Assembly: GCA_963933885.1 (NCBI GenBank) | Contig: CAWVWF010000024.1 | Location: forward strand, 1 to 24,943 | DNA: 24,943 bases | Reading direction: 5' to 3' | Source: an uncultured Flavobacteriales bacterium | GTDB taxonomy: Bacteria; Bacteroidota; Bacteroidia; Flavobacteriales_C; GCA-002722245 | Program-made: the position numbers and the translations under genes | The notes under the pieces: model-generated | What the model saw: only the letters and a program-made list of their open reading frames with translations | What the model was told of the DNA's origin: nothing | Databases searched by the model: none | Shown here: piece by piece, positions 3,401 through 23,639 of the stretch | Position numbering within the stretch: position 1 is the first letter of the stretch | Layout: the number at the start of each line of letters is the position of its first letter

Positions 3401-5099
3401 TATTATCATAATCTCCTTTTTGAGATTTTGCATTCATATAATCAAATAGTCTATCCTTAACTGTAATAAGACCTTCTTCAATATTATAAATTAAAAAACC
3501 TTGACTTGCTAGGTTTACCATCAATCGTTTTACAGATTCAATATCTTTTCTAAAATGACCCGCAATTTCAACATCCGTAAACTGTCGTTCACCATAATTC
3601 TTCTTCATTACAAATTGCTTCAGCGTATACAATGGATGCGTGTCACTTAATCCTTGTAAACTCATAAAACGATCTTCAGAATAATAACTACCCGACTCTA
3701 ATCTCATCTCACCTGAACTACTCCCTGGTATTGTTGAGAAGTCCATATGGTTTTTATCAATATCCCATTTTGCCCATTCAATAAACATATCCATTTGATG
3801 GAATGTATTTGAATATGGTGAGGCTCCAATCCCTTTTCCCTCTCGATATAATGTAAGCTCTCTCTTTGCCGGACTAAACTTCATTTGTAAGGCTGGATGA
3901 TAAATTGAATCGGTATCTAAAACCATCGTAATTGCAGCATATTTTGTTGCAATTCTATCTTTGCTTATTGTAAAACTTCTAGACTTTGCTATTAAGAAAG
4001 GTTTGTTGTGTCTTTTAAAAATTACTTTAGCAGGACTATCTCCAATACTCTTCCCTATAAATTTATTTCCTTTAATCATGAACCCACCTTCGTAATCAAT
4101 ACTATCTTCAATCTCAATAATCTTCATGGATTCTGAATAGGAAATAAATCGAGGGTAAGTAGCATTTTTTTCATTTACGTTCGCAAGAAGCTTCTCCTTG
4201 AGTTGACCGTAAAGCATATCTGGGAAATATTTTTTATTCTTATATTTAACTGAGTCTGCAACATAATTAGATGACTTTAGTTTAATCTCGTAACTAGATA
4301 ATTCTGCATACGAAATTGCTGTATCAATACCAGCTCTTGTCCAAAAAACCTTTCCTCCCTTTCCATGCCAATATCCACTAGTAGGGTAAAAAGATCCATT
4401 TGTTTGGTAAATTCTCGCCGTATCATTTTTTGCTACACAATAGATATCCATTTCAGGAAATACAACTTTTGGTAAACTGTCGTAATCAAATGAAAACTTA
4501 GAAGAAGTTCCATACCAAGTTACATTCTGAGTAACATATATTGCATTATATATAAATATGTTATTACAACTATTTAAAAATTTTGTGAAATGTCTTTTGT
4601 TATCCTTGATTAGTTTGTTCGTAGCGATGTTCCATGCATCAAAAGAATCCTCAGATTGATAAGTAACGAAAAAGCTAATTATAGAAGTAAGATAAGCCTT
4701 AAAATCAGGAATGGCTTTCATTCTATTCTTTAGCATTTTATTAGACATATCAATAATCATTGATATTTGATAATCATTAAGCTTTCCTGTATTAACAGAA
4801 TATACAAACTCACTAGTAACCTTAGCCTTGGCCATTCTAGTTAAAAAAATCTTATTCGCTGCCTTATATATTTTCTCTTCTTTTTTTGGCTCAACATCAG
4901 TCATTGGCCAAATAGCTTTTATTTCACCAATTAAATTAGCTGATTCAACTTCATTAGTCTCAGCAATAAAATCTTGTAATTGTTGTAAGAACTCTGCTTT
5001 ATCCCTAGAGAAAGCTTTCACAGGTCCTGCATCCGCTAAAAAAGGGAATAGAATAGTAAATAATAATCCTAATGTTACTTTTTTGAAAATGCTAGGCAT
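480..5099 (-). CDS. Large (~1539 aa) signal-peptide-bearing protein of unknown function
   Basis: Uninterrupted 4.6-kb minus-strand ORF. The ORF track starts at TTG 5105. The first in-frame ATG is at 5099 (MPSIFKKVTLGLLFTILFPFLADA), giving a classic Sec signal peptide with an A-x-A cleavage site and no lipobox Cys. Sequence is rich in Y/W/F/G/N/D. I see no HExxH, Walker, lipobox, T9SS-CTD or recognisable catalytic motif. Overlaps prmA stop by ~25 nt. Confidence 0.7.
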   Translation of the reverse strand: MPSIFKKVTLGLLFTILFPFLADAGPVKAFSRDKAEFLQQLQDFIAETNEVESANLIGEIKAIWPMTDVEPKKEEKIYKAANKIFLTRMAKAKVTSEFVYSVNTGKLNDYQISMIIDMSNKMLKNRMKAIPDFKAYLTSIISFFVTYQSEDSFDAWNIATNKLIKDNKRHFTKFLNSCNNIFIYNAIYVTQNVTWYGTSSKFSFDYDSLPKVVFPEMDIYCVAKNDTARIYQTNGSFYPTSGYWHGKGGKVFWTRAGIDTAISYAELSSYEIKLKSSNYVADSVKYKNKKYFPDMLYGQLKEKLLANVNEKNATYPRFISYSESMKIIEIEDSIDYEGGFMIKGNKFIGKSIGDSPAKVIFKRHNKPFLIAKSRSFTISKDRIATKYAAITMVLDTDSIYHPALQMKFSPAKRELTLYREGKGIGASPYSNTFHQMDMFIEWAKWDIDKNHMDFSTIPGSSSGEMRLESGSYYSEDRFMSLQGLSDTHPLYTLKQFVMKKNYGERQFTDVEIAGHFRKDIESVKRLMVNLASQGFLIYNIEEGLITVKDRLFDYMNAKSQKGDYDNIEVTSIIKGEPNATMNLINFDITMRGVGGVALSRARKTGFMPSNGVFKLHRNRDMSFAGIIRAGRYEFHGNKFEFSYDNFDVKLDEVDSVRLQAAYLAGETRGDKVQYKMVRSTIEDVSGALEIDWPHNKSGILSDSFPEFPKFHSTKKSYVRYNKRNKRGNAYDPHKVYFQLDTFTVDSMMSFSIPGISFPGTFASGGIFPDFKEKLILMPDHSLGFVKAAPPEGYQMYGGKAKFNNDIILSNEGLMGDGEFHYITSTSKSKAFVFYLDSMNAPAYESEIRPQMAPVEYCDVQGRKVKVAYYATKDYFTMKKVKTPISMYSEGSKLHGGLVYDHKGMTGAGMMDFDNAELKSEIFEFQNITFNADTSDFKLKSDTTAADVGDGIAFSTNDVNSKIDFKKRVGEFVANGGASFVDFPMNSYICFMDQFKWFMDDFELELSSSDGNASKAASTAGGNDLDLAGSEFISTHKDQDSLKFISPKANYDLKKYIIKAHDVKYINVADARIYPSDGEVVVKKAAELVPLDSAKIIANVTTQYHTINNSTVEIRARRSYFAEGDYEYVGSDGGKQLIHFDNIRVDSAFQTVASGNINVDDKFMLSPDFGYRGSTKIEANKKGMLFRGAAVLQHACNKLNKPWFGFESEIDPSNVMIPIDSGIQSWVKGKAKGTKLGTGVVIKKDSTHLYSAFLSKKKYHSDQMLITAAGFVQYDSELKEYQLSNKEKLMESSFPGNFIGLNTNTCVIRGEGEVVLADKLGQIKVKNFGGITHDPYTDSVKIKGAMAFDFHLDDAMWAHILGNIQGNPKLRPTKVGNLMYEKAIREMVGKKKGDKLVSELNLFGAFKKVPSNIRHNILFNDVNLYWQQRTKSYLSDGALGIGLLGKKQLNRFVKGNIQVVRKKGKEAVTIYIEIDDKTWYYFSYSKGVMRCLSSADDFNAIISSLKADKREVKGEKGEGPYTFMLGTERSKRKFLAKVAN

Positions 5100-5908
5100 A
5101 ACCAATTGTCTTTTGAGTATTTTTTATTGAATAAAAAACCTGCTTCAATAGCGGCTTTTGTAATTATTTCTTCATCTACTGATAAAAAACCACTAAGGGC
5201 TAAAATACCACCTTGCTTAATATTATCAGAATAAACATTTAATTGATCAAGAAGAATATTAAGGTTAATGTTAGCCAGAATTACATCAAACTCTTTATTG
5301 CTAATCATTTCTTTACCTCCCAACTTCACATCGAAACTTACATCATTTCGTTCACTGTTTTCTATACAATTTTCAACAGCCCATTCTTCAATATCGATCG
5401 CTTCAACAAATGAAGCTTTCATTTTTTTTGCTAGTATAGCTAGGATACCTGTACCAGAACCCATATCCAATACAGACTTCCCTTCTAGCTTCATCTCTCT
5501 CATCGCATTCACCATCATATAAGTAGTTTGATGATGACCAGTTCCGAAAGACATTTTTGGCTCAATAATAATTTGAAATTCCGTTTGAGGAACATTTTGG
5601 TGAAAAGGGGCGATAATACTACACCAGTTCTCCACCAAAATGGGCTCGAAAGAGCTTTCCCAAACTTTGTTCCAGTTTTTAGTCGGCACTAATTCTATAG
5701 AAAAATCCAGTTTATACGAATCGTTTAAACTTAAATTATCTAAATATTGTTTGATTTCATTTGAGTAGTCCGAAGCTGAAATAAAAGCGTTTAAACCCTC
5801 TTTTGTTTCTTCAAAACTTTCACATCCAAGCTCTCCCAATTGGGCAATAAAAACATCAACCCAGGGAGTCCTGGGTTGAATGTTAATTGATATTTTATGA
5901 TAATCCAT
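5075..5908 (-). CDS. prmA: Ribosomal protein L11 methyltransferase
   Basis: 277-aa ORF with the PrmA hallmark GTGHHQTT, an SAM-binding DMGSGTGILAI motif and overall PrmA length and layout. ATG start overlaps the tpiA stop (TAATG). Confidence 0.9.
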   Translation of the reverse strand: MDYHKISINIQPRTPWVDVFIAQLGELGCESFEETKEGLNAFISASDYSNEIKQYLDNLSLNDSYKLDFSIELVPTKNWNKVWESSFEPILVENWCSIIAPFHQNVPQTEFQIIIEPKMSFGTGHHQTTYMMVNAMREMKLEGKSVLDMGSGTGILAILAKKMKASFVEAIDIEEWAVENCIENSERNDVSFDVKLGGKEMISNKEFDVILANINLNILLDQLNVYSDNIKQGGILALSGFLSVDEEIITKAAIEAGFLFNKKYSKDNWLCLAFSKK

Positions 5909-10481: not shown

Positions 10482-10757
10482 CACAAAAAGCGAAACTATG
10501 AGTAACTACCTTGCATATTACTCTACGACAGCAATTAGAAAAAAGCCCATCCTTATCGCTCAATAACTTAAAATTAGCGGTGAACGAATTAAGAAACGAG
10601 CCAGGATTATCATTTGGAATCCAGCTAATTTTTAGAACGATCTGTTTTAAGGTGCCATAATCATTTTTTATCTTAGAAATAAATTAGTTTACAGGTTTGA
10701 TAATACACGAAACAAAAACCTGAGTTATTGTGTACTATACGTGCACTACTATTTGTA

Positions 10758-13619
10758 ATGAAAGAAAAAGACAATTTACTTCATCTTCGAAAAGAGATTG
10801 AAAGCCTAAAAAAAGAAAACCTCCATTTAAAAGGAAAGATAAAAGATGTTTTCAGCACTGTTTCTCATGGGAAACCGACAGTATACTCTACGTTTAACTC
10901 AGACGAAACATTAGAAAACCTTTTAAATTTATTCTCTGAATTAGAATCAAAAAAAGCCCTTTTAGATCAAAACCTCCAAGCATTAGATTCCGTTAATGAT
11001 GGAATAGCAATATTTGATAAAGATGGATTTTTAGTGTTTTCTAATAAATCGTTTCCAAAAGTTTTTCGGTTATCTTCTCAAAATTTAATTGGTAAACATT
11101 GGAGAGAAATTTTTAAAGGCGAAATAGAGTCCTCAATTAGATCATTACTTAGAGAAGTAAATCATAATTATGCTGTTCACAAGGAAGTAGTTATTCCATA
11201 TAAAAACGAAAGCATCTTTGTATCATCCTCTATCCATCCATTAGAAAATGGTGATTTTTTAATCAATGTTAAAGATGTTACTAGAGAAAAAGAAAAGCTA
11301 CATAAAATTCAAGAACAAGCTTTACTTTTAAAATCATCAGGAGAATTCATAGGAATTTGTAATTCTAAATTTGAATTTACTTTTCTAAATGATTCAGCGA
11401 TAAATTTATTTTCCATTCACAATGACTGGAAAGGCATGAAGTTCAGCGACTTTCTTCTTAATGGAAAAGTATTGGAAAAAGAAATAATCCCGAAGCTAAA
11501 GGAACGAAAAGGGTGGATTGGTGAATTAAATGTAAAAACGAAAAATAGAACATTCCCAATTGGTTGTGAAATAATGCCATTTCAAGCAACTCAGCTATCC
11601 AAAGGAGGTTACTATATAATACTGCGAGATATCACAGAAAGAAAACAAGCAATAAAAAAGCTTGTTGATGCAAAAGATGCTGCTGAAAACAACATGAAAA
11701 TCCGCCAGCAGTTCTTAGCGAATATGAGCCACGAAGTTCGTACTCCAATGAATGCAATAATTGGATTATCAAGCCTATTGTTAGATGGTACTTTAAAAGG
11801 GAAACAAAAACAATTTGCAGACTCTATAAAACTCTCAGCTGAAAACTTATTGGTTATTTTAAACGACATTTTAGATATTTCGAAAATGGAAAGTGGTAAA
11901 TTATCAATTGAGAAAGTATCTTTTGACTTTTACCAGTTAATAGAAGGTGTTAGATCTATTTTTGTTCATAAAATAGAAGATAAAGGAATAAAGTTCATAA
12001 TCAACATTGAAGAAGAGATTCCTGATTTTTTAATTGGTGATCCAACAAGACTTAATCAGATTTTATTGAATCTGATTAGTAATGCTGTGAAGTTCACTGA
12101 CAAAGGACATATTTCTTTAAATATAAAAGCTGTTACAAACAGTCAATCTGAAACAACACTTCAATTTGAAGTTGAAGACACAGGGTTAGGTATAGCAAAA
12201 GAAAACTTAGAAAAAATATTCAATGTTTTCACTCAAGAATCCTCTAATACAGCTAGGTTATTTGGAGGTACTGGACTTGGATTAGCAATAGTTAAACAGC
12301 TAATAGGAATACAAAATGGAAAAATAAATGTTCGATCAATTATAAATAAAGGAAGTGTTTTTACGGCTGAAATAAAATACGGAATACCTAAAGTTCAACT
12401 TGAACAACCTAAAGAATTTAATGAAGATTTTCAACTATCTAAATTAAAAGAGGCAAGAATCATAATGGCTGAGGATTACCCTATGAATCAACTTCTGGCT
12501 AAAAGCTTGTTTGATAAATGGGGACTTCATTTAACTATCGTAGAAAACGGAAAGGAACTGCTTAACGACTTAAATACGAACACATATGATATAATATTAA
12601 TGGACATCCAAATGCCAGAAATGGATGGTTTAGAGGCAACTCGAAAACTTAGACAAAGAGGTATTAGAACTCCAGTTATTGCAATTACAGCTCATGCTTT
12701 TGCTGAAGAACAAGAACAATGCATTAAATCAGGAATGAATGATTTTATTTCAAAACCATTTAAGGAAAAAGATTTAAAAGAAAAACTGATTACATTTTTA
12801 CATTTAAAACCTGATGATATTCAAACCATTAGGAAACATACCCCTACTCCAATATCCAATGACATAAGCTACTTCAAACTTAACTATATTAAAGAGATGG
12901 GAGCAGGTGATAAAAGATTCACTATTGACATGCTTGAAATGTTTCTCCAACAAGTACCTAAATCATTAAACGATATTATTAAAGCTTTAAATCAAGGAAA
13001 TAAAAAAGAAATATCAAAATACGCACATACCTTACAATCCTCTTTCGAAATTATTGAACGATCAGATGTAAAGTCGGATTTAAAAAGACTTGAACTGTGG
13101 GGGAAAGAAATAGAACCATTAGACAATCCTATAGGTGAACTTGAGTCTATTATAGAGAAATCTAAATTGATTATCCAAGCTGTTTCTGATTATCTTGGTA
13201 AGGTTGTAAATACTAGCTTCACTCCTATTGAAATGGTTTATAATACGAACACCTTAAGTGAGGTAATTATAAACTTCAGAAAAATAAATGAGCTAGCAGT
13301 AGGTGATAATAATTTCATTAGAGAAATGCTAAACTTATACGTTTCACAAACCTCTGGTCAATTAGAAGTGATAAGTCAACTTTGTAAAAAAGGAGACCAC
13401 TTTGAAGCAAGTACTATATTTCACAACATGATCGCATCGTTTGATTTAATTGGATGCGAAAACTTAATGAACTCTTCTAGAAGGTTGGAAAACCTTACTA
13501 TCAATAATGAGAAGTCAAAAAACTTAGACACTATGATAGATCAGTTTATCACGCTTACCAAATCTACTTTCGAGATTGTAAAAACAAAAGCAAATGAAGA
13601 ATTCAAGATTAAGCTTTAA
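10758..13619 (+). CDS. Cytoplasmic hybrid sensor histidine kinase/response regulator with two PAS domains and two C-terminal Hpt-like domains
   Basis: The ORF-track start 10728 is TTG. The first ATG at 10758 gives MKEKDNLLHL with a coiled-coil leader and no TM segment. PAS-like blocks are DSVNDGIAIFDKDGFLVFSNKSF and LLKSSGEFIGICNSKFEFTFLN. HisKA H-box MSHEVRTPMNAIIG. HATPase N/G boxes LNLISNAVKFT, DTGLGI and GGTGLGLAIVK. Receiver domain with DIILMDIQMPEMDG and KP. Hpt 1 has KYAHTLQSS. Hpt 2 has FHNMIASFDLIGCENL. Confidence 0.85.
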   Translation: MKEKDNLLHLRKEIESLKKENLHLKGKIKDVFSTVSHGKPTVYSTFNSDETLENLLNLFSELESKKALLDQNLQALDSVNDGIAIFDKDGFLVFSNKSFPKVFRLSSQNLIGKHWREIFKGEIESSIRSLLREVNHNYAVHKEVVIPYKNESIFVSSSIHPLENGDFLINVKDVTREKEKLHKIQEQALLLKSSGEFIGICNSKFEFTFLNDSAINLFSIHNDWKGMKFSDFLLNGKVLEKEIIPKLKERKGWIGELNVKTKNRTFPIGCEIMPFQATQLSKGGYYIILRDITERKQAIKKLVDAKDAAENNMKIRQQFLANMSHEVRTPMNAIIGLSSLLLDGTLKGKQKQFADSIKLSAENLLVILNDILDISKMESGKLSIEKVSFDFYQLIEGVRSIFVHKIEDKGIKFIINIEEEIPDFLIGDPTRLNQILLNLISNAVKFTDKGHISLNIKAVTNSQSETTLQFEVEDTGLGIAKENLEKIFNVFTQESSNTARLFGGTGLGLAIVKQLIGIQNGKINVRSIINKGSVFTAEIKYGIPKVQLEQPKEFNEDFQLSKLKEARIIMAEDYPMNQLLAKSLFDKWGLHLTIVENGKELLNDLNTNTYDIILMDIQMPEMDGLEATRKLRQRGIRTPVIAITAHAFAEEQEQCIKSGMNDFISKPFKEKDLKEKLITFLHLKPDDIQTIRKHTPTPISNDISYFKLNYIKEMGAGDKRFTIDMLEMFLQQVPKSLNDIIKALNQGNKKEISKYAHTLQSSFEIIERSDVKSDLKRLELWGKEIEPLDNPIGELESIIEKSKLIIQAVSDYLGKVVNTSFTPIEMVYNTNTLSEVIINFRKINELAVGDNNFIREMLNLYVSQTSGQLEVISQLCKKGDHFEASTIFHNMIASFDLIGCENLMNSSRRLENLTINNEKSKNLDTMIDQFITLTKSTFEIVKTKANEEFKIKL

Positions 13620-13783
13620 TCTTCACTTCCTAATTTCTTATACAACCAATATGCCGCTGCAACTAAGGCAAGTAACAATGCTATATTTAAAATCCATCCA
13701 AATATCTTAAATATATACATTGACAAGAAGTAAAGTACTACACCTAATAATATCCAATAACCTAATTTCTTTAACTCTTTCAT
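13616..13783 (-). CDS. Unannotated 55-aa two-TM small membrane protein, translationally coupled to the giant AAA+ gene
   Basis: Minus-strand ORF MKELKKLGYWILLGVVLYFLSMYIFKIFGWILNIALLLALVAAAYWLYKKLGSED. Its ATG overlaps the giant gene stop (TAATG at 13781..13785). It has two hydrophobic helices with Lys flanks. It falls below the ORF-track length cut-off. Its stop overlaps the kinase stop convergently. Confidence 0.4.
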   Translation of the reverse strand: MKELKKLGYWILLGVVLYFLSMYIFKIFGWILNIALLLALVAAAYWLYKKLGSED

Positions 13784-16700
13784 TAGTCAACTCCGTTTAA
13801 ACCGTTTTCAATAACTTCTTTTAATGACTTTAATCCTAGATTAAACTCATCCATTTCCAATAATATTTTCCCCATATTATCTCCTCCTACACCGTTGTAT
13901 TTGTTGTTTTTCTTAAATTGATCAACAATAGAATTCCAACGATCTAATTCCTCTTCACTTTGATAACCAGTTAAAGATTTAAACTTTAACAAGTTTGATT
14001 CTGCGTTAGATGTTAAAGTCTGTGATTCACTTTCATAATGTGCCATAAGAATCTCCTCAAGTTCCTCATCATTCATTATAGGGACAATCTTCGCAGAAAT
14101 CTTATTCATATCCCTATAAGAACCCTGTAATTTAAAAACTGGCTCTAAACGATATTCATCAGCTTGCGCTGCAGATTCAATATATTGTTGATTCACTTTC
14201 AAGATAACATCTCTTGCTACAAAAAGCTTCTTCAAAACACTTGTAATCTCTGTAATATCATCAGATGTAATATTACTTTCTAAATGTAAATTCTCACTAT
14301 TTCCTGTTTCTGCGAACTCAATTAAACTATATAAATCTTGCTGACTTTTTGAAGACAGCTTACTCAACACAGAATTACTCGTTAAACAGTTTTCAACATA
14401 AGACAACTTAAATGCTCTCTCTGACCCTCCTAGTATATCCCCAAGGTTATAAGTATCAGCCCTATTCGTTAACATATCTGGAATTTGAAACTTATCTCCA
14501 CTTTCAGTATATGGGTTCCCCGCCATTACAACACAGACTTTCTTACCTCTTAGATCATAAGTTTTAGATTTACCTTTATAAACTCCTTCTATTTTTCTTT
14601 GTCCATCACAAAGAGAAATAAATTTTTGCAAAAACTCTGGATTACAATGCTGAATATCATCAAGATATATCATTACATTATCTCCCATTTCAAAAGCCAA
14701 GTTCAACTTTTTCAATTCATCTCTTGTTGCTGAATTATCTGCTAAAGCTGGATCAATTGAAGTAATCGAATGCCCTAAAGCAGGACCATTGATTTTCATG
14801 AAAATCAAACCAAGTCTTGAAGCTACATATTCCATTAATGTAGTTTTTCCATAACCTGGAGGTGAAATCAATAACAACATCCCCATTAAATCGGTACGTT
14901 TATTCTCTCCTGCCTCTCCTATTTGTTTCGCAAGATTATCTCCAATAATAGGAAGATACACTTCATTAATTAATCGGTTTCTAACAAATGAACTTAAAAC
15001 TCTTGGTTTAAATTCGTCCAGTTTAAGTGTTTCCTTAAAATCTGAAACTAATGTTTTCTTTAAATCTAAAAAAGCCTTGTAGTTTGGTACTTCAATATTC
15101 TCAAAAACTGTTAATTGCGTAACAAAATCTATAAACTTAAATGATAGTTCACCATTTATAACTTTTGAATGTTCTCCAACCAAACCAGAAACAATCGTTC
15201 CTGTTTCAACATTTGAAACCTGAGAAACTTCGTAGCTATTATCCATTACCAACAAAGTCGTTTCTAAACAAACCCCTGCATCTTCAAAAGAAATTGAATC
15301 AGCATAAGAATCTACCCATTTCTTAACGAATACAAACTTATCTACATTCGTTTCTGCGAGTTTCTTTAAAGAATTTAAATACGTTTCTTTATGTTTTCCG
15401 TTTACTAAGAACTTATTGAATTCATCTTTGAATTCCCAAGCCTTATGATCAATTACAAATTTTGAATTAGATTTCAATTCTTCAAAAAGGTAATTAGCAG
15501 AATCAATAGATTCATCTTGAAGTAATTCTTTCCCTGCTGCAAAAACATCAATTTGAAGACTAATATTTGTAATCAAATCATCCATTTCATTACTTGTTGG
15601 AAAAACAGACAATAACAATGAAAGAGATTTAATCTTATCTGAAATCACTTTTCTCTGCTCTTCGTTTAATCCGTATTTCCAGAACAACTGTGCTTTAACT
15701 CTGCTCTCATTCGAGAAACGAAGCAAACCAATAGACTGATTTAACTCAATCAACTTCCTTAATATTTTTGCAGCATCAAAATCATGAACACCTTTCAAAT
15801 AACCTTCTTCATATCTAGACGCCATTCTTTTTTGAACAAAATCAAGTAATTCTTCTTCTGAAAAATGAAGCGTATCCTCATGATCTCCTGCCTCAATTTC
15901 TTTAAATAAACTGAAGGCTAAAAATTCTGAACGGTAAACAGTCTTATTTTCTGAAGGTAAATGAAGTGACCAATAATCTTTGAACTGATAAAATGCTTCA
16001 TCTTCTAACTTATCATAAAAGTTAGTTCCTGTTAAGTGAAAATACATTTCATCCCCTTTGGGTACTATTGTTAAGTCCAACGGTTGAGTATTAACTGAAA
16101 ACTTACGCTTCCCGAAAGAGATAATATTTTCTCCATCAACAAAAAGCTCTTTTCTATCCTTTAATTGTCTGATTGAGTCTTCTTGAGTAGATTTTAATTT
16201 ACTCTGAATTTCATCTGCTTTCACAGAGTCTTTCATTTCAATCAATTGCTTTACAATATCACGAACTTTATCAACCATGATATCACTCGCTAAGTAAGAA
16301 TTGATTTCAGACACTGAATCCATCTGAGACAATTTATTCTTTACTCCTTTTAAAATCCTATTCGCAGAATTTAATAATGCACTCGATTTCTTGTTGAATT
16401 GCTCTAAAACCTGAGCCTTCTTAGTTTCGAAGATATTATAAACTTCTTCTCGCTTTTGGATAACAGTTTCTATAAACTCAGGAAAATCAGAAAATCTTCC
16501 TTCTAATTCTTCAAGCTTAACCATTACCTTATTCAAATACTCATCACACTTTTCTTGTGTATCACTTATATCTATATAATTCCCGAGACTCTGCTCTACT
16601 AATTTTATTTGTGCGGCAAACTCAGACTTTCCTTCTTTAAGCATAAGAGATTTTTTAATACCTCTTAACTTTGATCTAAGTTGATTGAACTTACTATATA

Positions 16701-18666
16701 TTTTAGATATATTATCTACAATTTTTGTTGTTTGAGTTGTATCCTTAATCTTTAAATTAGATACTACATCAATCAACATTTCAAGCTCACCTGCCGTCTT
16801 ATTAATATCTTCATTTACATTGTCGCATGTTTGTACTTTAAGCACCTTAGCAATCTCCCCCTCAATCGTTAATACCTTATCAGAATATGGATTAAGAGAT
16901 TCTTTTTTCAATAAGAACTGAATACAACGTTCACTTTGAGTTTCGTTTAGCTTTGAAAGAATCTCTTCATAACCTTCAATTTTTTCTAGATCTGCATATC
17001 TAAGGTCTCTTAAACTTATTGCTTCACCACGAAGATTTCTAATAACAGATAAGACTTCAACAAAGTCATGAATTTTATCGTAATTACTAGACTTTAATTT
17101 CTTAATAAGATTATCTAGCTTTAAAAACACTTCACCAGAAACCTCGTTTGTATTCTTCCTCGCTCTAACTACTTTATCAAATTCGTCTATTGCAAGTTCT
17201 GCTGTAGACTTAATTTCTTCAATAGATTCTGATATGTTAAAAGCTTCAGATTTGTTTAACCAATAATAGGAATCCAATACATCCGTAGAGAGCTTCTTAA
17301 TATCATAATACAAGTCTTGATAGTTCTCATCTTTCTTTAAAAGACCAACTAACTCATTCCCTTCAGACATTGCTTTAACAACATCTTTATTTCCAATTTT
17401 ATACAAATAATTACTTGTATCTCCTGAGTCAGCAATACCTGCTTCAGTATATGGAGTTTGCCAAATTTGAATTACATGATGTTTCTGAGGATCTTCATCT
17501 GCTGAAAAATAACACAATGAACCATCATCGAAAAATGAGTAACCACTACAAATAATTGGCTTAGCTGCTTTTTGACTTATAATATTATATGAAAACAAAC
17601 TATATGTCCCTGTACTTTCTTGATAGAACACAAATAAGTTATCTTCTCCATTTGGAGACACAATTTTTTTATCAAAGCCAACCCCTTCAATATCTAACTC
17701 AAAAGTTTTAGAAGCTCCATTTTGTAAATAGAATCCATTAGGGAAAATTACACCTTGATCATCTGGCAATAACAAACATGCTGTTTCAATAGCATCAACA
17801 CGAACAACTGTGCTCAGTTTTTCATTAAAAATAAAATACCTAGCGTTTTCTTGATAGGGTTTTATTTTTAATAAAATGATACTTCCTAAATCAACATAAT
17901 GATAATCTGCATCATCTAAAGTTTGATCCTTATTATCAACAGCTTCAGAATAAATTCCTTTACCATCATTTGTATTATCTTCAATTTTTATGGTTAAATC
18001 GCCTTTTATAGTTTCTACAAATACACGATCTAAAATAGACACATGTGGTTCTTCACCTGCTCTATGTGCATCTCTTGTTACTTTCTCCCATTCAAACTCA
18101 TGTTGAGATGGATTTACAACTTCATGATCAAATCTACTTCCTATATAAGTAAGTGAATCATCTTCATTTACTTGCCATTTAAATGCTTTAAAATCAGAAG
18201 CAGACTTTCCAATCTGGAAAATCATAAATAAGAAAGGGCCTATCTCTACAAACTTTGTAAATACAGTTGTTTTATAGTACTTATAAACGTCCTGAAATTC
18301 CTTTTCAAATTCAGTATTATTAATTAACTCTAAAGTCTCTTCTTTGAAATTCTCATTATAAGTGTAAATGCTAAAAACATCTTTAGGTAGTACTTCAGAC
18401 CTTAAACCAACAAAAACATTATATCCGAAAATAAACTTGTTTCCAACAGGAATCATATCCCTAGGAACACAGTTGTTTTGAGTATTAATTCTTTCGGTAG
18501 CAATTAACTTAGTTTCAATTGAACCAAAGACTTCTTTCCTAGAAACATTTAATTTCTCAAGTTTTTCAGAAAGAGAAACAGCACCATCAGAAAGTCTTTT
18601 TCTCAAAACTTCGTAAGTACCACTCGCTATATTTACTTCTGGATTTTCTGTAGAATTATCAGCCAT
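13783..18666 (-). CDS. Giant (~1627 aa) multidomain protein with C-proximal MoxR/AAA_5-type AAA+ ATPase module
   Basis: 4.9-kb ORF. The track start 18714 is TTG. The first ATG at 18666 gives MADNSTENPEV. Layout: beta-rich N-terminal ~450 aa, then a ~600-aa K/E-rich helical/coiled-coil region, then an AAA+ core. Walker A LLLISPPGYGKTTL; Walker B VMIYLDDIQHCNPEFLQKFISLCD; sensor-1 VCVVMAGNP; Arg finger IPDMLTNRA. Spacing and pattern match MoxR/dynein-type AAA_5, not ABC/SMC (no LSGGQ). A ~230-aa C-terminal extension follows. Confidence 0.8.
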   Translation of the reverse strand: MADNSTENPEVNIASGTYEVLRKRLSDGAVSLSEKLEKLNVSRKEVFGSIETKLIATERINTQNNCVPRDMIPVGNKFIFGYNVFVGLRSEVLPKDVFSIYTYNENFKEETLELINNTEFEKEFQDVYKYYKTTVFTKFVEIGPFLFMIFQIGKSASDFKAFKWQVNEDDSLTYIGSRFDHEVVNPSQHEFEWEKVTRDAHRAGEEPHVSILDRVFVETIKGDLTIKIEDNTNDGKGIYSEAVDNKDQTLDDADYHYVDLGSIILLKIKPYQENARYFIFNEKLSTVVRVDAIETACLLLPDDQGVIFPNGFYLQNGASKTFELDIEGVGFDKKIVSPNGEDNLFVFYQESTGTYSLFSYNIISQKAAKPIICSGYSFFDDGSLCYFSADEDPQKHHVIQIWQTPYTEAGIADSGDTSNYLYKIGNKDVVKAMSEGNELVGLLKKDENYQDLYYDIKKLSTDVLDSYYWLNKSEAFNISESIEEIKSTAELAIDEFDKVVRARKNTNEVSGEVFLKLDNLIKKLKSSNYDKIHDFVEVLSVIRNLRGEAISLRDLRYADLEKIEGYEEILSKLNETQSERCIQFLLKKESLNPYSDKVLTIEGEIAKVLKVQTCDNVNEDINKTAGELEMLIDVVSNLKIKDTTQTTKIVDNISKIYSKFNQLRSKLRGIKKSLMLKEGKSEFAAQIKLVEQSLGNYIDISDTQEKCDEYLNKVMVKLEELEGRFSDFPEFIETVIQKREEVYNIFETKKAQVLEQFNKKSSALLNSANRILKGVKNKLSQMDSVSEINSYLASDIMVDKVRDIVKQLIEMKDSVKADEIQSKLKSTQEDSIRQLKDRKELFVDGENIISFGKRKFSVNTQPLDLTIVPKGDEMYFHLTGTNFYDKLEDEAFYQFKDYWSLHLPSENKTVYRSEFLAFSLFKEIEAGDHEDTLHFSEEELLDFVQKRMASRYEEGYLKGVHDFDAAKILRKLIELNQSIGLLRFSNESRVKAQLFWKYGLNEEQRKVISDKIKSLSLLLSVFPTSNEMDDLITNISLQIDVFAAGKELLQDESIDSANYLFEELKSNSKFVIDHKAWEFKDEFNKFLVNGKHKETYLNSLKKLAETNVDKFVFVKKWVDSYADSISFEDAGVCLETTLLVMDNSYEVSQVSNVETGTIVSGLVGEHSKVINGELSFKFIDFVTQLTVFENIEVPNYKAFLDLKKTLVSDFKETLKLDEFKPRVLSSFVRNRLINEVYLPIIGDNLAKQIGEAGENKRTDLMGMLLLISPPGYGKTTLMEYVASRLGLIFMKINGPALGHSITSIDPALADNSATRDELKKLNLAFEMGDNVMIYLDDIQHCNPEFLQKFISLCDGQRKIEGVYKGKSKTYDLRGKKVCVVMAGNPYTESGDKFQIPDMLTNRADTYNLGDILGGSERAFKLSYVENCLTSNSVLSKLSSKSQQDLYSLIEFAETGNSENLHLESNITSDDITEITSVLKKLFVARDVILKVNQQYIESAAQADEYRLEPVFKLQGSYRDMNKISAKIVPIMNDEELEEILMAHYESESQTLTSNAESNLLKFKSLTGYQSEEELDRWNSIVDQFKKNNKYNGVGGDNMGKILLEMDEFNLGLKSLKEVIENGLNGVD

Positions 18667-18720
18667 GCTTATCAAAATATACTGTATCTCTCTTTCATAT
18701 CGAATGAAAAACAAACACTA

Positions 18721-18776
18721 CACTTATTAATAAAAGAAATTGAAATAATAGGGTTCGATTAATCTCGAACCCTATT
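18721..18776 (-). terminator. Intrinsic terminator/attenuator candidate between flotillin gene and giant AAA+ gene
   Basis: Perfect 12-bp stem aatagggttcga / tcgaaccctatt (18747..18758 and 18765..18776) with a 6-nt loop. It lies 13 nt downstream of the flotillin stop. On the minus-strand transcript it is followed by AUUUCAAUUUCUUUUAUU. Confidence 0.4.
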
Positions 18777-18789
18777 TAATTATTTAGAA

Positions 18790-20937
18790 TTAGTTCCTTG
18801 ATATTGACTCTAAACCTAGGATAGAAGCACTTTTCTCAGCGATTCCCATTCCTGTAGCAATGTTTAAGAAGTTCCCTAAAACACCTTTTTCTTGATCGTT
18901 AGCTCCACTCATCATTTTAGCGATTAAAGCAGTAATACTTAAGTTTTTCAACTCTTCACTTGTAACTCCAAACTGATCAATAAACTTTCTCAAGTTCTCT
19001 TTAAATGATGAACCTCCTTCTGAATCAAAGAATGTATTTTTGATGTCTTGAACAGTTTCTGAATTGTTAACCATTCTATCAATAGACTTTCCTTGTGTAA
19101 CTGCTCCAACCAACTTATCAAAGAAGATTGTTTCACCTCCAATAATTTCAATATTAGAGTTTCTAAGCGCTTCAGATAATACATGAGCTTGTGAATCAGC
19201 AATACTTTTCTGAGCATCTAAATGAGCCAAATCAACTTTCAATTCCTTCTCTAATTTCAATCGGAACTCTTCATGATCTTTCCCAAGACCTTCAAGCTTC
19301 TTCATTGCAATTGCTTTCTGATCGATACCTTCAGCTTCAGCAATCATTTTAGCTTTCAATACTTCAGCTTCAACATTACCTTCTTTTAATTTAGCTTCAG
19401 CCATTTTCTCAATAACTTGAGCCTCTGCCAAACCTTGCTCAACTTCCAACTTAGCGACAACTAATCCACGTTTTTCATTTGCTTCTGCTTCTGCTTCTCC
19501 AGTTAACTCAATTGCTCTAGCATTTGCTTCAGCTTCTTTTTCAGTAGCTTGTGCTTTAGCCTCCATTACCTGAGCTTCAGCCATACCTAAAGATGCACTT
19601 TCTGCAGCTTTCGCTTCAGCTAATGTTTTAATTGCTTCAGCTTGCTTAACACTTGCAACTTGTGTGCTTTCAGCATTAATAACAAGCTCTTGAGCTTTAA
19701 ATTCGGATGCTTTCTTATTAGCCTCTGCTTCTTTAATTTGCTTTACCAAACTCTCTTCAGCATCTTTCTCTGCTAGCGTGATTGCAACTTCTTTAGTTCT
19801 CTCCGCTTCTGCAAATGCCTTAGTATCTTTTATTTTCTCTTCTTCTTCAACAACCAGTTTCTCAACAATTACTCTATCTCTGATTACATCCTGAATGTTC
19901 TTACGCTCTGTTTCTATAACTTTTTCTTTCTCAATTTGAGCAAGTGTTACGATACGTTCACGTTCTGTAACCTCCAACATTCTGTCTTTTTCGATACGCT
20001 CGTTTTCAACAGCTTCAGTTCTTTCTTTATTTTTCGCTGCAACAATTACTTGTCTGTCTTTGTTTTCTTCAGCTACTTTAATATCTTCCTCTGCTTCGAT
20101 CCTTGCGTTCTCAGATTTTCTTCTTTCAATCTCACCTACTTTTTTAATTTCAGCTTGTTCTCTAGATTTAATATTAGCAATCTCACGCTTCTGCTTTTCT
20201 TCAGCTTCAGCCAATTGCTTATTTAATTCTAATATTGCTTCTTTAGCTTCAACATTTTGTTTTGTAATAACCTTTTCCTTTTCTTTTTCAATCAGGTTAG
20301 ATTTAATTTTTTGTTGAGCAGTTAACTCTGTAATTTTCTTAATACCTTGAGCATCAAGAATATTCTTTTCGTTTAAGTATTCAACTGGAGTTTGCTCTAA
20401 ATAGTCAATATGACAGTTATCCAATGCATATCCATTTAAATCACTTCCGATAATTCTAATAATCTCATCTCTGAAATTTTCTCTTTCATTATACAACTGT
20501 ACAAAGTCAAATTGCTTTCCAACTGTTTTTAATGCTTCAGAAAATTTTGCTTCAAACAATAAATGTAATTGCTCTGGATGAGATGCTCTAGCACAACCTA
20601 TAGACTGGGCTACCTGCATTACTTCTGTTTTACTAACTCTTACATAAAAAGCAACTTTAATATCTGATCGGATGTTATCATTACAAATTAATCCATCACT
20701 TCCCGATCTTTCAATTTCTACTTTCTTAAGAGAGACATCCATTGATTCAATCTTGTGTAAAACAGGAATCATAATCCCCCAACTATGGAAAACCTTAATC
20801 CCACCTATACCAGTTCTTACTAAAACTTCTCCAGGCGATGTTTTTCTTACTGCTCTTGCGAAAAACACAACAATACCAATTAATATTCCTAAAATAATCA
20901 AGCCTGCGAGGCCTACTGTATTTAATATAAAATCCAT
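18790..20937 (-). CDS. Flotillin-family SPFH/Band-7 protein (YqiK/FloT-like) with long EA-rich coiled coil
   Basis: 715 aa. N-terminal TM LAGLIILGILIGIVVFFA. The SPFH core includes SPGEVLVRTGIGGIKV and DIKVAFYVRV. An extended E/A/K-rich flotillin-type coiled-coil follows (AEAEANEKRGLVVAKLEVEQGLAEAQV), then a C-terminal ~150-aa tail. Confidence 0.85.
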   Translation of the reverse strand: MDFILNTVGLAGLIILGILIGIVVFFARAVRKTSPGEVLVRTGIGGIKVFHSWGIMIPVLHKIESMDVSLKKVEIERSGSDGLICNDNIRSDIKVAFYVRVSKTEVMQVAQSIGCARASHPEQLHLLFEAKFSEALKTVGKQFDFVQLYNERENFRDEIIRIIGSDLNGYALDNCHIDYLEQTPVEYLNEKNILDAQGIKKITELTAQQKIKSNLIEKEKEKVITKQNVEAKEAILELNKQLAEAEEKQKREIANIKSREQAEIKKVGEIERRKSENARIEAEEDIKVAEENKDRQVIVAAKNKERTEAVENERIEKDRMLEVTERERIVTLAQIEKEKVIETERKNIQDVIRDRVIVEKLVVEEEEKIKDTKAFAEAERTKEVAITLAEKDAEESLVKQIKEAEANKKASEFKAQELVINAESTQVASVKQAEAIKTLAEAKAAESASLGMAEAQVMEAKAQATEKEAEANARAIELTGEAEAEANEKRGLVVAKLEVEQGLAEAQVIEKMAEAKLKEGNVEAEVLKAKMIAEAEGIDQKAIAMKKLEGLGKDHEEFRLKLEKELKVDLAHLDAQKSIADSQAHVLSEALRNSNIEIIGGETIFFDKLVGAVTQGKSIDRMVNNSETVQDIKNTFFDSEGGSSFKENLRKFIDQFGVTSEELKNLSITALIAKMMSGANDQEKGVLGNFLNIATGMGIAEKSASILGLESISRN

Positions 20938-20950
20938 TTAATTATTGTTT

Positions 20951-21610
20951 TTAATCTATATATGGTTCAACAATGTAATAATTTTTAGCTTCAATTAACT
21001 CGAGAACTAAAGCCTTATCTCCTTTTTTCAAAGAAGTTCCTGATACACACTTAAACATGATCAATTCAGGTACTCGATCAACTTCAATTTCCCCTTGTCC
21101 TAATTTCATTTCATCAGCACCTAATGTTACCGTAACAATTTTCCCTACAGCATTCCTCAATTCTTTTTCTTCAATTTTCATTTTCTTAAAAACTTTCACA
21201 AAAGGCTGCGTAAAGATTTTACCGATAATTGAACTGATAATAATATTAGGAATAAATAAACCTAAACCTAAAAGGAAATTGTCGCCTAACAATTTATTTC
21301 CAATAATAGAAATAAACCATCCAGACAAAGCGAAGAAACTAAGAAAGAACATTAATGGAACGTACTTGATGTTTAAAAACTCAAGGATGTTATTTAAAAA
21401 CATCATATCTCCTAATCCTCCGTCTGCTTCCACACTAGTATCAACGTCTACATCAGCACTTAAATCAACATCAGCGTCAATATCTATGTCCATAAAATCC
21501 ATATCTAATACTCCAACGATAACAGTTACCCAATAAAGTAAAATCAGTACTAGTAATATCGTGAAGGGATAATTCATCCCTTCAAAGGACAATTCGATTA
21601 TTTCTTTCAT
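20951..21610 (-). CDS. NfeD/YqiJ-like membrane protein with C-terminal OB-fold and poly-acidic loop
   Basis: 219 aa. It has an N-terminal TM, the acidic tract DMDFMDIDIDADVDLSADVDVDTSVEAD, 2-3 further TM helices, and a C-terminal beta-barrel segment (GKIVTVTLGADEMKLGQGEIEVD...YYIVEPY) typical of NfeD partners of SPFH proteins. The stop is 13 nt upstream of the flotillin start. Confidence 0.7.
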   Translation of the reverse strand: MKEIIELSFEGMNYPFTILLVLILLYWVTVIVGVLDMDFMDIDIDADVDLSADVDVDTSVEADGGLGDMMFLNNILEFLNIKYVPLMFFLSFFALSGWFISIIGNKLLGDNFLLGLGLFIPNIIISSIIGKIFTQPFVKVFKKMKIEEKELRNAVGKIVTVTLGADEMKLGQGEIEVDRVPELIMFKCVSGTSLKKGDKALVLELIEAKNYYIVEPYID

Positions 21611-21660
21611 TATTCTAAATATTATTAAATGCTTATGAGAAAACTAATGATAAAATAGAA

Positions 21661-22365
21661 TTATTTATCCATGTTCATCTTAGCTTTCAAAGCAGCTAAT
21701 GCATCATCAGCAGAACTAGCGTCAGTATTTGCAGCATCGTTGATTTCATCTTCTATAGAAGTGTTTTCACCAGCAATCTCACCATATGCTTCGCCTAATG
21801 CTTCATCTTGCTCAACTTTTTCCTTCATTCTTTCTAACATAGAAATTGTACTATCAGGATCGATTCCAGCTAACTGCTTGTTCATCTTCTTAGTAGTTTC
21901 ACTAACACGAACTCTAGCTTTTAAAGTCTTTAATTCGTTTTCGTAATTACTAATCATGCTTTTCAATTTCTGAACTTGAGCACTCAATTTCACTTCTTGA
22001 GCTCCGTAGTTATCAGATCTTACTTGAGTTTCTGATGAATTCTTAACAGCTTGATCCTTTTTAACCAAAGCTTCTTTTGCTAAACGATCAGCATCTTCTG
22101 CGTTTAATTCTCCTTTAGAAACTTTCTGTAAAATCAACATTGCTTTCTTTTCCCAAGATTCAGCAGCTAATTTAGCTTCCTTTGCTTCTCTTTTAGATCT
22201 GATAACAATTGCTTTAATTTCAGCTAATCCTTTTAAAGAACCATCCAAATCTTTTTTCAAATCTCTAATTCCTTGCTCTGTGTTTGCAATTGGATCTTCT
22301 AATTTATCAATAACAGAATGTGCTTCTGCTTTACCAATATTAAATAATCTTCTAAATATGTTCAT
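21661..22365 (-). CDS. pspA: PspA/IM30 (phage-shock protein A / Vipp1 family; ESCRT-III superfamily)
   Basis: 234 aa. The N-terminal signature MNIFRRLFNIGKAEAHSVIDKLEDPIANTEQGIRDL matches the PspA/IM30 helix alpha0-alpha1. It is heptad-rich throughout with an acidic C-terminus. Confidence 0.85.
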   Translation of the reverse strand: MNIFRRLFNIGKAEAHSVIDKLEDPIANTEQGIRDLKKDLDGSLKGLAEIKAIVIRSKREAKEAKLAAESWEKKAMLILQKVSKGELNAEDADRLAKEALVKKDQAVKNSSETQVRSDNYGAQEVKLSAQVQKLKSMISNYENELKTLKARVRVSETTKKMNKQLAGIDPDSTISMLERMKEKVEQDEALGEAYGEIAGENTSIEDEINDAANTDASSADDALAALKAKMNMDK

Positions 22366-22369
22366 TTTA

Positions 22370-22765
22370 TTATTTTTTTGAAATGTTAATTAACTCCGAC
22401 GAATATTCACTCATTAATAGACTTAATGAATTTATCGATGATTCTAATTCGTTTAAATCTAAATTCTCTAATTGTAATGTATCTCTAAAAATCAATTTCT
22501 TTCCTGAATCATCAAGAACAAATGCTCCATGAATTATATCTCTATTCTTTTTAAGTAAATCGATATATACTTCACTTGAAGTAGAGTCTATATCAGTAAT
22601 ATATTGCTCCATGATTAAAATAGGATCTTCACATCCTAAAACAAGGTTTTTAATTCCTGATTCTTCTGCTTCTATAACCAAAATTGAATCAGCTTCACTT
22701 TCGTTTACAATAGTGTATTCTAACTCCGTTACGTAATTTTTAATTTTTGAAAAATTGTTATTCAT
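22370..22765 (-). CDS. Acidic small cytoplasmic protein, possibly YbjN/DUF2170 (YjfI-like) PspA-associated protein
   Basis: 131 aa, very D/E-rich, no TM, 4 nt upstream of pspA. Its size, charge and position before a PspA paralog mirror E. coli yjfI-yjfJ. Family assignment is from pattern only. Confidence 0.35.
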   Translation of the reverse strand: MNNNFSKIKNYVTELEYTIVNESEADSILVIEAEESGIKNLVLGCEDPILIMEQYITDIDSTSSEVYIDLLKKNRDIIHGAFVLDDSGKKLIFRDTLQLENLDLNELESSINSLSLLMSEYSSELINISKK

Positions 22766-22949
22766 CCCTTTCCTTTTAGTTGCTTTTAATTAAAAAACTA
22801 ATCTAAACCAAAATTCCTTTAATTGTTAAATAATTGAATTGAAATATTTAAAATCGTGCACTTTTTTAAAATATTATTCACTCAAAACTTTCATTTATTA
22901 GCATTTTTGTTTAAAATTGAACATAACCAAGATATAAAATCTTTTGTGA
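22766..22949. promoter_or_regulatory. Divergent promoter/operator region between the psp-flotillin cluster and the XRE/S24 regulator gene
   Basis: 184-bp AT-rich intergenic region flanked by divergent ATG starts. It contains short palindromes (CAATTG, AAATATTT, GTGCAC) and attcac...gtgaat inverted half-sites. No precise -33/-7 call made. Confidence 0.3.
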
Positions 22950-23639
22950 ATGAACAAATTTTTAGCAAAAAATAGCGAAGAAAAATCTACAATTAGTAAA
23001 AACATTAGAAAAATAAGGACTATAAAAGGTATTAGTCAAACAGTTTTCGCTGAAGACTTTGGTCTTAATCGTGCTAACATTAGTAGTTATGAAGAAGGAA
23101 GAGCTGAGCCTAAGATGGATTTTGTGATAAAGATTGCTAAAAAGTTCGGTTTAGACATGGAACACCTTTACACAAAAGACCTTACTGTAAACGACCTAAC
23201 CCACTTCTCCCCTCCTCAATACAAGAAAGAAACAATTTCACTCCAAAAAGAAAATAGTATTAAATGGGTAAGTAGATCAAGTAGTTTAGACTATGCATCA
23301 ATACTAATAAATGGTAGTGATAATTTACCCGATCTTCAAGTTCCAAATATTAAAGAAGCAAGAGCTTTCGAATATTTTGGTGACGACATAAAAGCTTTTA
23401 GCAATGGAGATGTTTTATATGCTAAAAAAATTGACAATAAAAACTGGAATGGTATAATTCCAGGTGAAGCATGTGTAGTTATTAGCAACGACAGAGTATA
23501 TTTTAAAAGATTAGATGTTGTTAAGAATAAAATTTCCCTTGTATCTGAAAACCCAAAATACAAGTCATTAAATATAGCAATTGAAGAGATTCAAGAAATA
23601 TGGAGGGTTGTTGGTTACTTATCTTTTTTAATTCCTTAA
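22950..23639 (+). CDS. XRE-family HTH transcriptional regulator with LexA/S24-like C-terminal domain (nucleophile Ser not conserved)
   Basis: 229 aa. N-terminal Cro/C1-type HTH IRKIRTIKGISQTVFAEDFGLNRANISSYEEGRAEP. The C-terminal region aligns to the LexA/cI S24 fold: GEACVVISNDRVYFKRL with the general-base Lys in FKRL conserved, then SLVSENPKY and WRVVGYL. Where LexA has G-x-S-M this protein has YFGDDIKAFSNGD, so a canonical Ser-Lys dyad is doubtful. Confidence 0.7.
   Translation: MNKFLAKNSEEKSTISKNIRKIRTIKGISQTVFAEDFGLNRANISSYEEGRAEPKMDFVIKIAKKFGLDMEHLYTKDLTVNDLTHFSPPQYKKETISLQKENSIKWVSRSSSLDYASILINGSDNLPDLQVPNIKEARAFEYFGDDIKAFSNGDVLYAKKIDNKNWNGIIPGEACVVISNDRVYFKRLDVVKNKISLVSENPKYKSLNIAIEEIQEIWRVVGYLSFLIP

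Follow-up and report, generated by a model that had tools for sequence, protein, structure and literature searches.

Genes for PspA have been noted next to genes for band-7/FloT proteins, NfeD proteins and helix-turn-helix (HTH) regulators (Popp et al. 2022). A complete operon of this kind was later described in Dokdonia donghaensis (ANH61663.1). It encodes CesT/Tir-PspA, a YqiJ/YuaF-type protein with three transmembrane (TM) segments, a band-7/flotillin protein and a beta-propeller/coiled-coil AAA+ protein, and it is accompanied by a divergent 'cHTH+Protease' gene (Ravi et al. 2024, mSystems, PMC11237479, text and Table S3). According to the same authors, shorter versions lacking PspA are more widely distributed and were suggested to work with PspA encoded elsewhere, and associations of PspA with AAA+ proteins were proposed to serve ATP-dependent membrane remodelling, in comparison to Snf7 and Vps4. 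Here, we analysed such a locus in contig CAWVWF010000024.1 of an uncultured Flavobacteriales bacterium. The whole stretch, positions 1 to 24,943, is referred to as the window, and the locus under study spans positions 13616-23639. Its genes, their order and the divergent regulator are the same as in the Dokdonia operon, and we found no architectural difference. Comparative genomics had thus already predicted this system, and the initial annotation of the window was mistaken in holding that a dedicated giant AAA+ partner is without precedent, since both the operon and an ESCRT-like proposal for it are in print. What we add are flotillin-centred counts, independent recruitments of PspA and the AAA+ clade as judged from a structure model, together with a degenerate S24 active site in the regulator, a conserved intercistronic hairpin and a lineage-specific membrane protein of 55 amino acids (aa). 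On balance, we lean towards reading the locus as a membrane-maintenance module that is centred on flotillin, driven by ATP and working together with PspA.

Parts of the arrangement resemble known gene pairs. The Escherichia coli yqiJ-yqiK pair matches two of the window genes by profile and shares their order and tight spacing, whereas yqiK is followed by sibD/ibsD instead of a giant ATPase gene and encodes a flotillin of 553 aa versus 715 aa in the window. Likewise, in the E. coli yjfI-yjfJ(-KLMC) operon a small chaperone-like gene lies directly before a YjfJ-type pspA gene, but the window chaperone is of the CesT_Tir_1 and not of the DUF2170 type, and the polyamine-related genes are absent. 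In pspA-ydjGHI of Bacillus subtilis, PspA and an SPFH protein are also encoded together, and the SPFH protein YdjI tethers PspA to the membrane (PMC8581546). This operon differs from the window locus in that it encodes no AAA+ protein and has other membrane partners, YdjG and YdjH. Coupling of an SPFH scaffold to an AAA+ hexamer is known from HflK/C, whose cages enclose the AAA+ protease FtsH, and likewise from prohibitin and the m-AAA protease. FtsH is, however, a membrane-anchored protease of the classical AAA clade, while the giant protein of the window has neither a protease domain nor a TM segment.

Results

In a scan of one genome per GTDB species we detected at least 588 carriers of the giant gene. 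The 80 loci most similar to the query were fetched and analysed by open reading frame (ORF) calling, iterated profile searches and clustering of all neighbours. They stem from Bacteroidota, Verrucomicrobiota, Planctomycetota, Desulfobacterota, Clostridia and Kiritimatiellota, and thus from at least six phyla. Among the 64 loci with at least 3.3 kb of upstream sequence, a flotillin gene was present in 61 and a YqiJ gene in 58, and the order YqiJ-flotillin-giant on one strand was invariable. The same trio without further partners occurs on Streptomyces and Deinococcus replicons, and a Pseudomonas replicon likewise carries the trio genes. Apart from flotillin, YqiJ, PspA, CesT and the regulator, clustering of the neighbours in the surveyed loci revealed no further family conserved beside the giant gene. 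That is, the constant partner of the giant ATPase is the flotillin/YqiJ pair, and the linkage extends over many genomes and phyla instead of being confined to one genome.

The complete gene order of the locus recurs in 22 other Bacteroidota genomes and is therefore not a chance arrangement. Hence, the composite that had been read from the window, a chaperone-PspA pair joined to a YqiJ-flotillin pair and a giant AAA+ gene, is real and conserved. In the 30 Bacteroidota loci we found PspA 23 times, CesT 22 times and the regulator 22 times, and the three occur together in Bacteroidota only. Outside this phylum, a more sensitive search detected PspA in one of 33 loci with 7 kb of upstream sequence, the Kiritimatiellota locus L033, where the gene lies upstream of YqiJ (PspA_IM30, 40.7 bits). 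In the Planctomycetota locus L017, pspA is located directly downstream of the giant gene (PspA_IM30, 50.7 bits). Both copies had been missed by our first PspA profile, which was built from Bacteroidota copies and too narrow, and were recovered with an E. coli PspA seed and Pfam. A further layout is found on the Pseudomonas fluorescens megaplasmid pQBR103, where a complete yjfI-yjfJ-type operon (YjfI, PspA, rhomboid, DUF2491, DUF350, DUF1190 and a glutathionylspermidine-synthase-like protein) precedes the trio, which consists of genes for a 217-aa protein, an SPFH protein and the giant ATPase. The neighbourhood lacks PspA in roughly two out of three loci of the survey. PspA is an accessory that was acquired repeatedly, in at least four layouts, which argues for a real functional cooperation and against a role of the ATPase on PspA only.

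These counts bear on the explanation emphasized by the initial annotation, namely that the giant AAA+ protein is a dedicated remodeller of PspA polymers, a Vps4 analogue from another AAA+ clade, with flotillin and YqiJ as a mere platform. The window locus resembles the ESCRT-III-Vps4 system in that a polymer-forming protein of the ESCRT-III superfamily (PspA) is paired with an AAA+ ATPase, here by gene linkage. The independent arrivals of PspA at the trio point to such a functional link. The explanation would also agree with the ESCRT-like proposal of Ravi et al. 2024, according to which PspA encoded elsewhere may serve the PspA-less operons, and with a 2025 review stating that a Vps4-like ATPase appears to be absent in bacteria. 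However, flotillin is almost always present where PspA is not, the PspA link is facultative, no MIT domain was detected in the giant protein with Pfam, the AAA+ clade differs from that of Vps4, and the C-terminal motif of the window PspA is generic and not operon-specific. The ATPase is tied far more closely to flotillin and YqiJ than to PspA, so that a role directed at flotillin is no less likely than one of the Vps4 kind. We consider a PspA-dedicated remodeller an unlikely explanation.

We then compared the membrane partners with known families. The YqiJ-like protein of the window matches YqiJ_N (E 1.7e-5, 25.4 bits, cut-off 23), and its family profile aligns with E. coli YqiJ over the full length (hhalign probability 96.6%, E 6e-10). 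YqiJ_N is matched by 32 of 53 homologs, and NfeD, weakly, by seven of the 53. The window copy itself matches neither NfeD nor YqiJ_OB, and the hhalign alignment of the family with YqiJ also covers the beta region at the C-terminus. The protein has three hydrophobic segments, a loop of acidic DxD repeats and, C-terminally, a beta domain. The loop, DMDFMDIDIDADVDLSADVDVDTSVEAD, connects the first hydrophobic segment to the second (residues about 36-70, window 21400-21500); the family consensus retains the D-x-D pattern, and the loop may bind cations.

The 715-aa product of the adjacent gene gave no Pfam match of its own. It combines an N-terminal membrane anchor, visible in the sequence as a hydrophobic N-terminus, with an SPFH domain and a long Ala/Glu-rich coiled coil. 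When a profile was built from 57 orthologs, it aligned with residues 16-423 of E. coli YqiK (probability 100%, E 4e-43, 393 columns), and Band_7 was matched by eight of the 57 family members (best E 9e-15). By profile comparison, the protein is assigned as a YqiK-type flotillin. The pairing of an NfeD-like protein with a flotillin, as initially annotated, is thus borne out by comparison with the two E. coli proteins.

The giant protein is matched by DUF3686 (E 5e-179), DUF7902 (E 4e-24), AAA (E 8e-10) and AAA_5 (E 1e-5). Its PF00004 score (39.8 bits) exceeds that for AAA_5 (26 bits, cut-off 22). We found at least 4575 homologs, and across phyla the sequences are about 50% identical over the full length. 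Two AlphaFold models, computed from 48-sequence alignments (mean pLDDT 79 each), together cover the whole protein. In these models a conserved N-terminal helix is followed by a beta-propeller, a helical stalk, a small beta domain with helices, the AAA+ core and a C-terminal helical domain. The propeller region was modelled with a pLDDT of about 85-90 (model mae6f2d62bdf9), and Foldseek aligned this DUF3686 region with six- and seven-bladed propellers (E 1e-5 to 1e-3), among them LGI1 EPTP, CyRPA, PON1, Vps18, prolyl oligopeptidase and YncE. Sequence and profile searches against PDB sequences, run with the giant protein and with the flotillin, gave matches at the level of Walker A or coiled coils only, and matches to p97 span the Walker A region only.

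The AAA+ motifs of the giant protein (Walker A GPPGYGKT, Walker B YLDDIQH, sensor-1 MAGNP and an arginine in NRAD) are invariant in a set of 16 and in a set of 48 homologs. Between helix alpha3 and the sensor-1 strand beta4, the second model (m7512c6597ca7) contains a beta-hairpin at model residues 359-372, which corresponds to the pre-sensor-1 hairpin. Classical-clade AAA proteins such as Vps4 lack this hairpin. The best Foldseek matches of the AAA+ core were MCM, the MoxR proteins NorQ and CbbQ (TM-scores by target 0.53-0.60), RuvB, dynein and HslU, and neither Vps4 nor p97 was among the top 50 matches. The models thus place the core within the pre-sensor-1-hairpin group and not in the classical (Vps4) clade.

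To the MoxR chaperones (NorQ, CbbQ and RavA) the giant protein is linked by the best target-normalised structural matches and by the pre-sensor-1 hairpin, and it also matches AAA_5; by E-value, however, MCM and RuvB match about equally well. In addition, it contains the motif NP..E..G....IP...L.NRAD, which we take to resemble the MoxR signature. It differs from them in being about five times larger and in its Asp-Asp Walker B motif; no helix-2 beta-hairpin is evident in the model, and no VWA/MIDAS partner is encoded among the conserved neighbours of the gene. The initial classification as 'MoxR-type, not meiotic clade' is therefore broadly right as far as the models tell, with strict MoxR membership unproven. 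It had also been considered that the giant protein might fall into an SMC/SbcC-type family; we found it not to be SMC/SbcC-like.

NCBI names the giant protein 'DNA repair ATPase', and the Pfam text reads 'ATPase involved in DNA repair'. If this were its function, the adjacency to membrane-protein genes would be incidental. Only the annotation text speaks for it. A weak similarity to RuvB and MCM is confined to the AAA+ core and does not exceed that to NorQ and CbbQ, whose targets are proteins. We detected no domain for DNA binding, no nuclease and no helicase-specific domain, and the only conserved neighbours of the gene encode membrane proteins. Our literature searches retrieved no work using the family name DUF3686. 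A role in DNA repair is thus highly improbable; the name has no support beyond the Pfam text, and the family is systematically mis-named.

The two proteins encoded at the front of the operon are a small chaperone-like protein and PspA. The former matches CesT_Tir_1 (PF22550) with residues 1-131 on profile positions 1-131 (E 6.5e-54), and weak matches to CesT and YbjN were obtained as well. The initial annotation had called it YjfI-like (DUF2170). We rejected this assignment at the family level in view of the CesT_Tir_1 match, the missing DUF2170 match in Pfam and the lack of BLAST similarity to E. coli YjfI (E 0.4). The 131-aa protein and DUF2170 (YjfI) do fall into one CesT/Tir superfamily, as has been argued (Ravi et al. 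2024, PMC11237479).

PspA of the window matches PspA_IM30 with residues 2-229 (E 5e-39, 134.6 bits, cut-off 33.9) and is 29% identical to E. coli YjfJ (E 2e-6). It is not an equivalog of E. coli PspA (TIGR02977, 47.7 bits versus a cut-off of 242.95) or of B. subtilis LiaH (34.4 bits versus a cut-off of 380). An N-terminal MNIFRRLF helix, amphipathic-looking, and a C-terminal LAALKAKM motif align with E. coli PspA, which has the C-terminal motif in common with the window protein. As initially reported, the genes of the 24,943-nucleotide (nt) window include no PspF, PspB/C or Lia genes.

All seven ORFs of the locus were confirmed at the positions that had been assigned to them (Table 1). On the minus strand, the CesT-like gene and pspA are separated by 4 nt, pspA and the YqiJ-like gene by 50 nt, and the YqiJ-like and flotillin genes by 13 nt. 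Of the gaps first given (4, 51, 13 and 75 nt), the first and third hold and the second is shorter by one. The fourth depends on a giant-gene start at TTG 18714, which would yield a 1643-aa product. We rejected this start in favour of ATG 18666: the three closest giant homologs (P0001-P0003) are 1627 aa long, exactly as the product from this ATG, and in two relatives with giant proteins 90% (L083) and 82% (L084) identical to that of the window the alignment is conserved from ATG 18666 on, with indels and a hairpin upstream of it. The real gap between the flotillin and giant genes is therefore 123 nt.

Table 1. Features of the locus, in window coordinates
Feature	Position	Strand	Basis
Regulator, XRE/S24-like, 229 aa	22950..23639	+	HTH_3 and Peptidase_S24 profiles
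Divergent intergenic region, 184 nt	22766..22949	.	read off sequence
CesT/Tir-like chaperone, 131 aa	22370..22765	-	Pfam CesT_Tir_1 PF22550
PspA/IM30-family protein, 234 aa, YjfJ-like branch, ESCRT-III superfamily	21661..22365	-	PspA_IM30
YqiJ/YuaF (NfeD-like) membrane protein, 219 aa	20951..21610	-	YqiJ_N and family profile
YqiK-type flotillin (SPFH), 715 aa	18790..20937	-	family profile versus E. coli YqiK
Terminator-like stem-loop, 12 bp stem, 6-nt loop, then T-rich tail	18747..18776	-	flotillin-giant intergenic
Giant AAA+ protein, 1627 aa, DUF3686 family	13783..18666	-	DUF3686, DUF7902, AAA, AAA_5
Giant protein, beta-propeller, residues about 53-403 (= DUF3686)	17458..18510	-	AlphaFold model and Foldseek
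Giant protein, long alpha-helical stalk, residues about 420-841, including DUF7902	16144..17409	-	
Giant protein, AAA+ core and lid, residues about 1263-1459	14290..14880	-	motifs and model hairpin
55-aa membrane protein, two hydrophobic segments	13616..13783	-	ORF; TAATG overlap

Within this gap lies a perfect hairpin with a free energy of -18.6 kcal/mol (z -5.35), followed by a T-rich tract. The stem is identical in L083 (about 2916-2943), while in L084 (about 1150-1174) a wholly different stem sequence forms the same structure, again with a T tract. More broadly, when the 100 nt that follow the flotillin stop codon were compared in 67 loci, the best hairpin beat all 8 shuffles in 42 of them (versus about 7 expected). 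A conserved element is thereby indicated, be it a terminator, an attenuator or an RNA-stabilising structure, and it probably keeps the level of the ATPase much below that of the scaffold. Since this hairpin interrupts them, the five genes do not form the simple tight operon that had been supposed. The same spot is an insertion hot spot; by eye, the inserted genes look like those for lipoproteins, DUF559-like endonucleases, REP-associated transposase-like proteins and small TM proteins.

The regulator consists of an N-terminal XRE-type HTH (HTH_3, E 4e-11) and a C-terminal S24-like domain (Peptidase_S24, E 6e-7). In all 22 loci with CesT it is encoded divergently and adjoins the CesT gene; the divergent regulator is thus part of the module, as first proposed. 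The HTH part shows strong conservation. Where LexA has the catalytic serine of its Ser-Lys dyad, the window protein reads GDD and 21 of 22 homologs lack the serine (only L052, with NSM, has it); in place of the Lys there is mostly Arg. An additional coiled-coil tail at the C-terminus, present in many homologs, is missing from the window copy. Without the catalytic serine a LexA-like self-cleavage is unlikely, and the S24-like domain probably serves dimerisation or sensing.

The divergent region is presumed to hold the promoters and an operator. In the regulator-CesT regions of L013, L020, L054, L004 and L041 we found TTAGC/GCTAA palindromes (TATTAGCTAATA; ATTAGC-N8-GCTAAT), which are candidate operators. 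The window region contains a TTAGC half-site only, near 22889, and no shared operator was definable from it. A sigma-70 promoter scan was uninformative (45 sites versus 41 expected); Bacteroidota promoter motifs differ from this consensus.

Downstream, the TAA stop codon of the giant gene overlaps the ATG of the 55-aa ORF as TAATG, as initially annotated. L083 and L084 retain both the overlap and the ORF. Inspection of the sequence 3' of the giant gene revealed similar small ORFs with two hydrophobic segments in L001, L016 and L059 (all Bacteroidota); they are absent from the other loci with downstream sequence. A phmmer search with the 55-aa protein gave no matches. The 55-aa ORF is a real gene, though restricted to a lineage. 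In two Verrucomicrobiota loci (L070 and L072), an ORF of ~300 aa with a coiled-coil-like N-terminal sequence is located directly 3' of the giant gene.

Convergent to the 55-aa gene and overlapping it by 4 nt, the window encodes a 963-aa hybrid histidine kinase (PAS, HisKA, HATPase, receiver and Hpt domains; 10728-13619, plus strand). It is absent from L083, where cdaA follows directly 3' of the 55-aa gene. The kinase gene is therefore a recent insertion, or was lost in L083, and is not part of the module. The window flanks comprise housekeeping genes (cdaA, folP, tpiA, prmA and a pseudouridine synthase gene), and on the side covered by L083 the genes cdaA, folP, DUF1599, MauE, tpiA and prmA are syntenic. 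At 480-5105 (minus strand) lies a gene for a 1541-aa protein with an N-terminal signal-like segment and no Pfam match at E 1e-5; L083 has a 1545-aa gene at the corresponding position beside prmA.

The genomic context also bears on a possible function in anti-phage defence or abortive infection, in which the locus would respond to damage of the membrane. An XRE-type regulator beside the operon would fit such a system, and in PADLOC the regulator matches generic HTH models of defence systems. Copies of the locus on megaplasmids and the small mobile-looking genes gathered between flotillin and the giant gene point in the same direction. However, a PADLOC 2.0 scan of the seven proteins returned, besides the generic HTH matches, only a Walker A-level match to IetA (E 0.0085) and a coiled-coil match to JetC, and no homolog was found in 50,697 phage records. 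Pfam revealed no nuclease, toxin or other effector domain, the flanks are of the housekeeping type with one side syntenic in L083, and an identity of about 50% across phyla is unusually conservative for a defence gene. Taken together, we regard a defence function as distinctly improbable.

Discussion

We slightly favour a membrane-maintenance module built around flotillin and driven by ATP, because the order YqiJ-flotillin-giant is near-invariant across phyla and replicons, no other family is conserved beside the giant gene, and PspA was recruited to the trio in four layouts. The full-length conservation of the giant protein across phyla and its invariant ATPase motifs point the same way, as do its propeller-stalk-AAA+ architecture, the YqiJ and YqiK profile matches and the conserved hairpin. 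Further support comes from the chaperone and remodelling reading of the same operon by Ravi et al. 2024, from the PspA-SPFH link of B. subtilis and from the HflK/C-FtsH precedent.

The invariant core of such a module would be formed by the YqiJ/NfeD-like protein, the YqiK-type flotillin and the cytoplasmic giant AAA+ protein. In solved structures, SPFH proteins form a large dome that sits on the membrane from the cytoplasmic side. YqiJ and flotillin could build a membrane-attached SPFH assembly of this kind, and we infer that an ATPase ring would contact it and use ATP to build, open or take apart this flotillin assembly or its clients, with the propeller and stalk as a docking arm. In Bacteroidota, the CesT/Tir-like chaperone and the YjfJ-type PspA have joined the front of the operon, and with them came the divergent XRE regulator, which would act as a dedicated repressor and whose S24-like domain is probably no longer a protease. 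The repressor would respond to a stress signal by which the operon is induced. PspA, held by its chaperone, would when needed seal or reshape the stressed membrane at flotillin-organised sites, and could itself be among the substrates of the ATPase.

Several observations weigh against this interpretation. Adjacency of genes is no proof of physical interaction of their products, and our literature searches on DUF3686, on flotillin with MoxR and on 'DNA repair ATPase' with flotillin retrieved no experimental datum for any member. Three loci (L008, L023 and L035) carry the giant gene without adjacent flotillin or YqiJ in 7-10 kb of upstream sequence, and in 22 loci (for example L002, L020 and L063) inserted small genes of diverse kinds separate flotillin from the giant gene. 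Given the hairpin, the giant gene could also have a transcript of its own. In Walker B (window 14650-14670, residues 1334-1340), the giant protein has Asp-Asp and not Asp-Glu, invariantly in the 48 homologs, so that ATP hydrolysis may be slow or regulated. A similar DDIQ motif occurs in DnaA. Finally, the 80-locus sample is biased towards Bacteroidota and the nearest relatives of the window locus.

A bolder version of the membrane-maintenance module is conceivable, which we put forward as a speculation with a low chance of being correct in full. In this version, a DUF3686 hexamer of ~1.1 MDa would dock via its propellers and stalks on flotillin domes and remodel SPFH as well as PspA polymers, as a Vps4 analogue from another AAA+ clade that is present in at least nine phyla.

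Bacteria possess ESCRT-III relatives (PspA and Vipp1) and flotillin domes, yet no remodelling ATPase is established for either. The giant ATPase family counts at least 4575 homologs and is carried by at least 588 species genomes; because it is highly conserved and its genes nearly always adjoin flotillin, it is the obvious candidate. The idea as such is already in print. The value of the present analysis is practical: it ties the family to flotillin first and to PspA second, it names tractable carriers (Flavobacterium, Sphingobacterium and P. fluorescens SBW25 with pQBR103), and with the propeller, the Asp-Asp Walker B motif, the hairpin and the inactive-protease regulator it provides handles for experiments.

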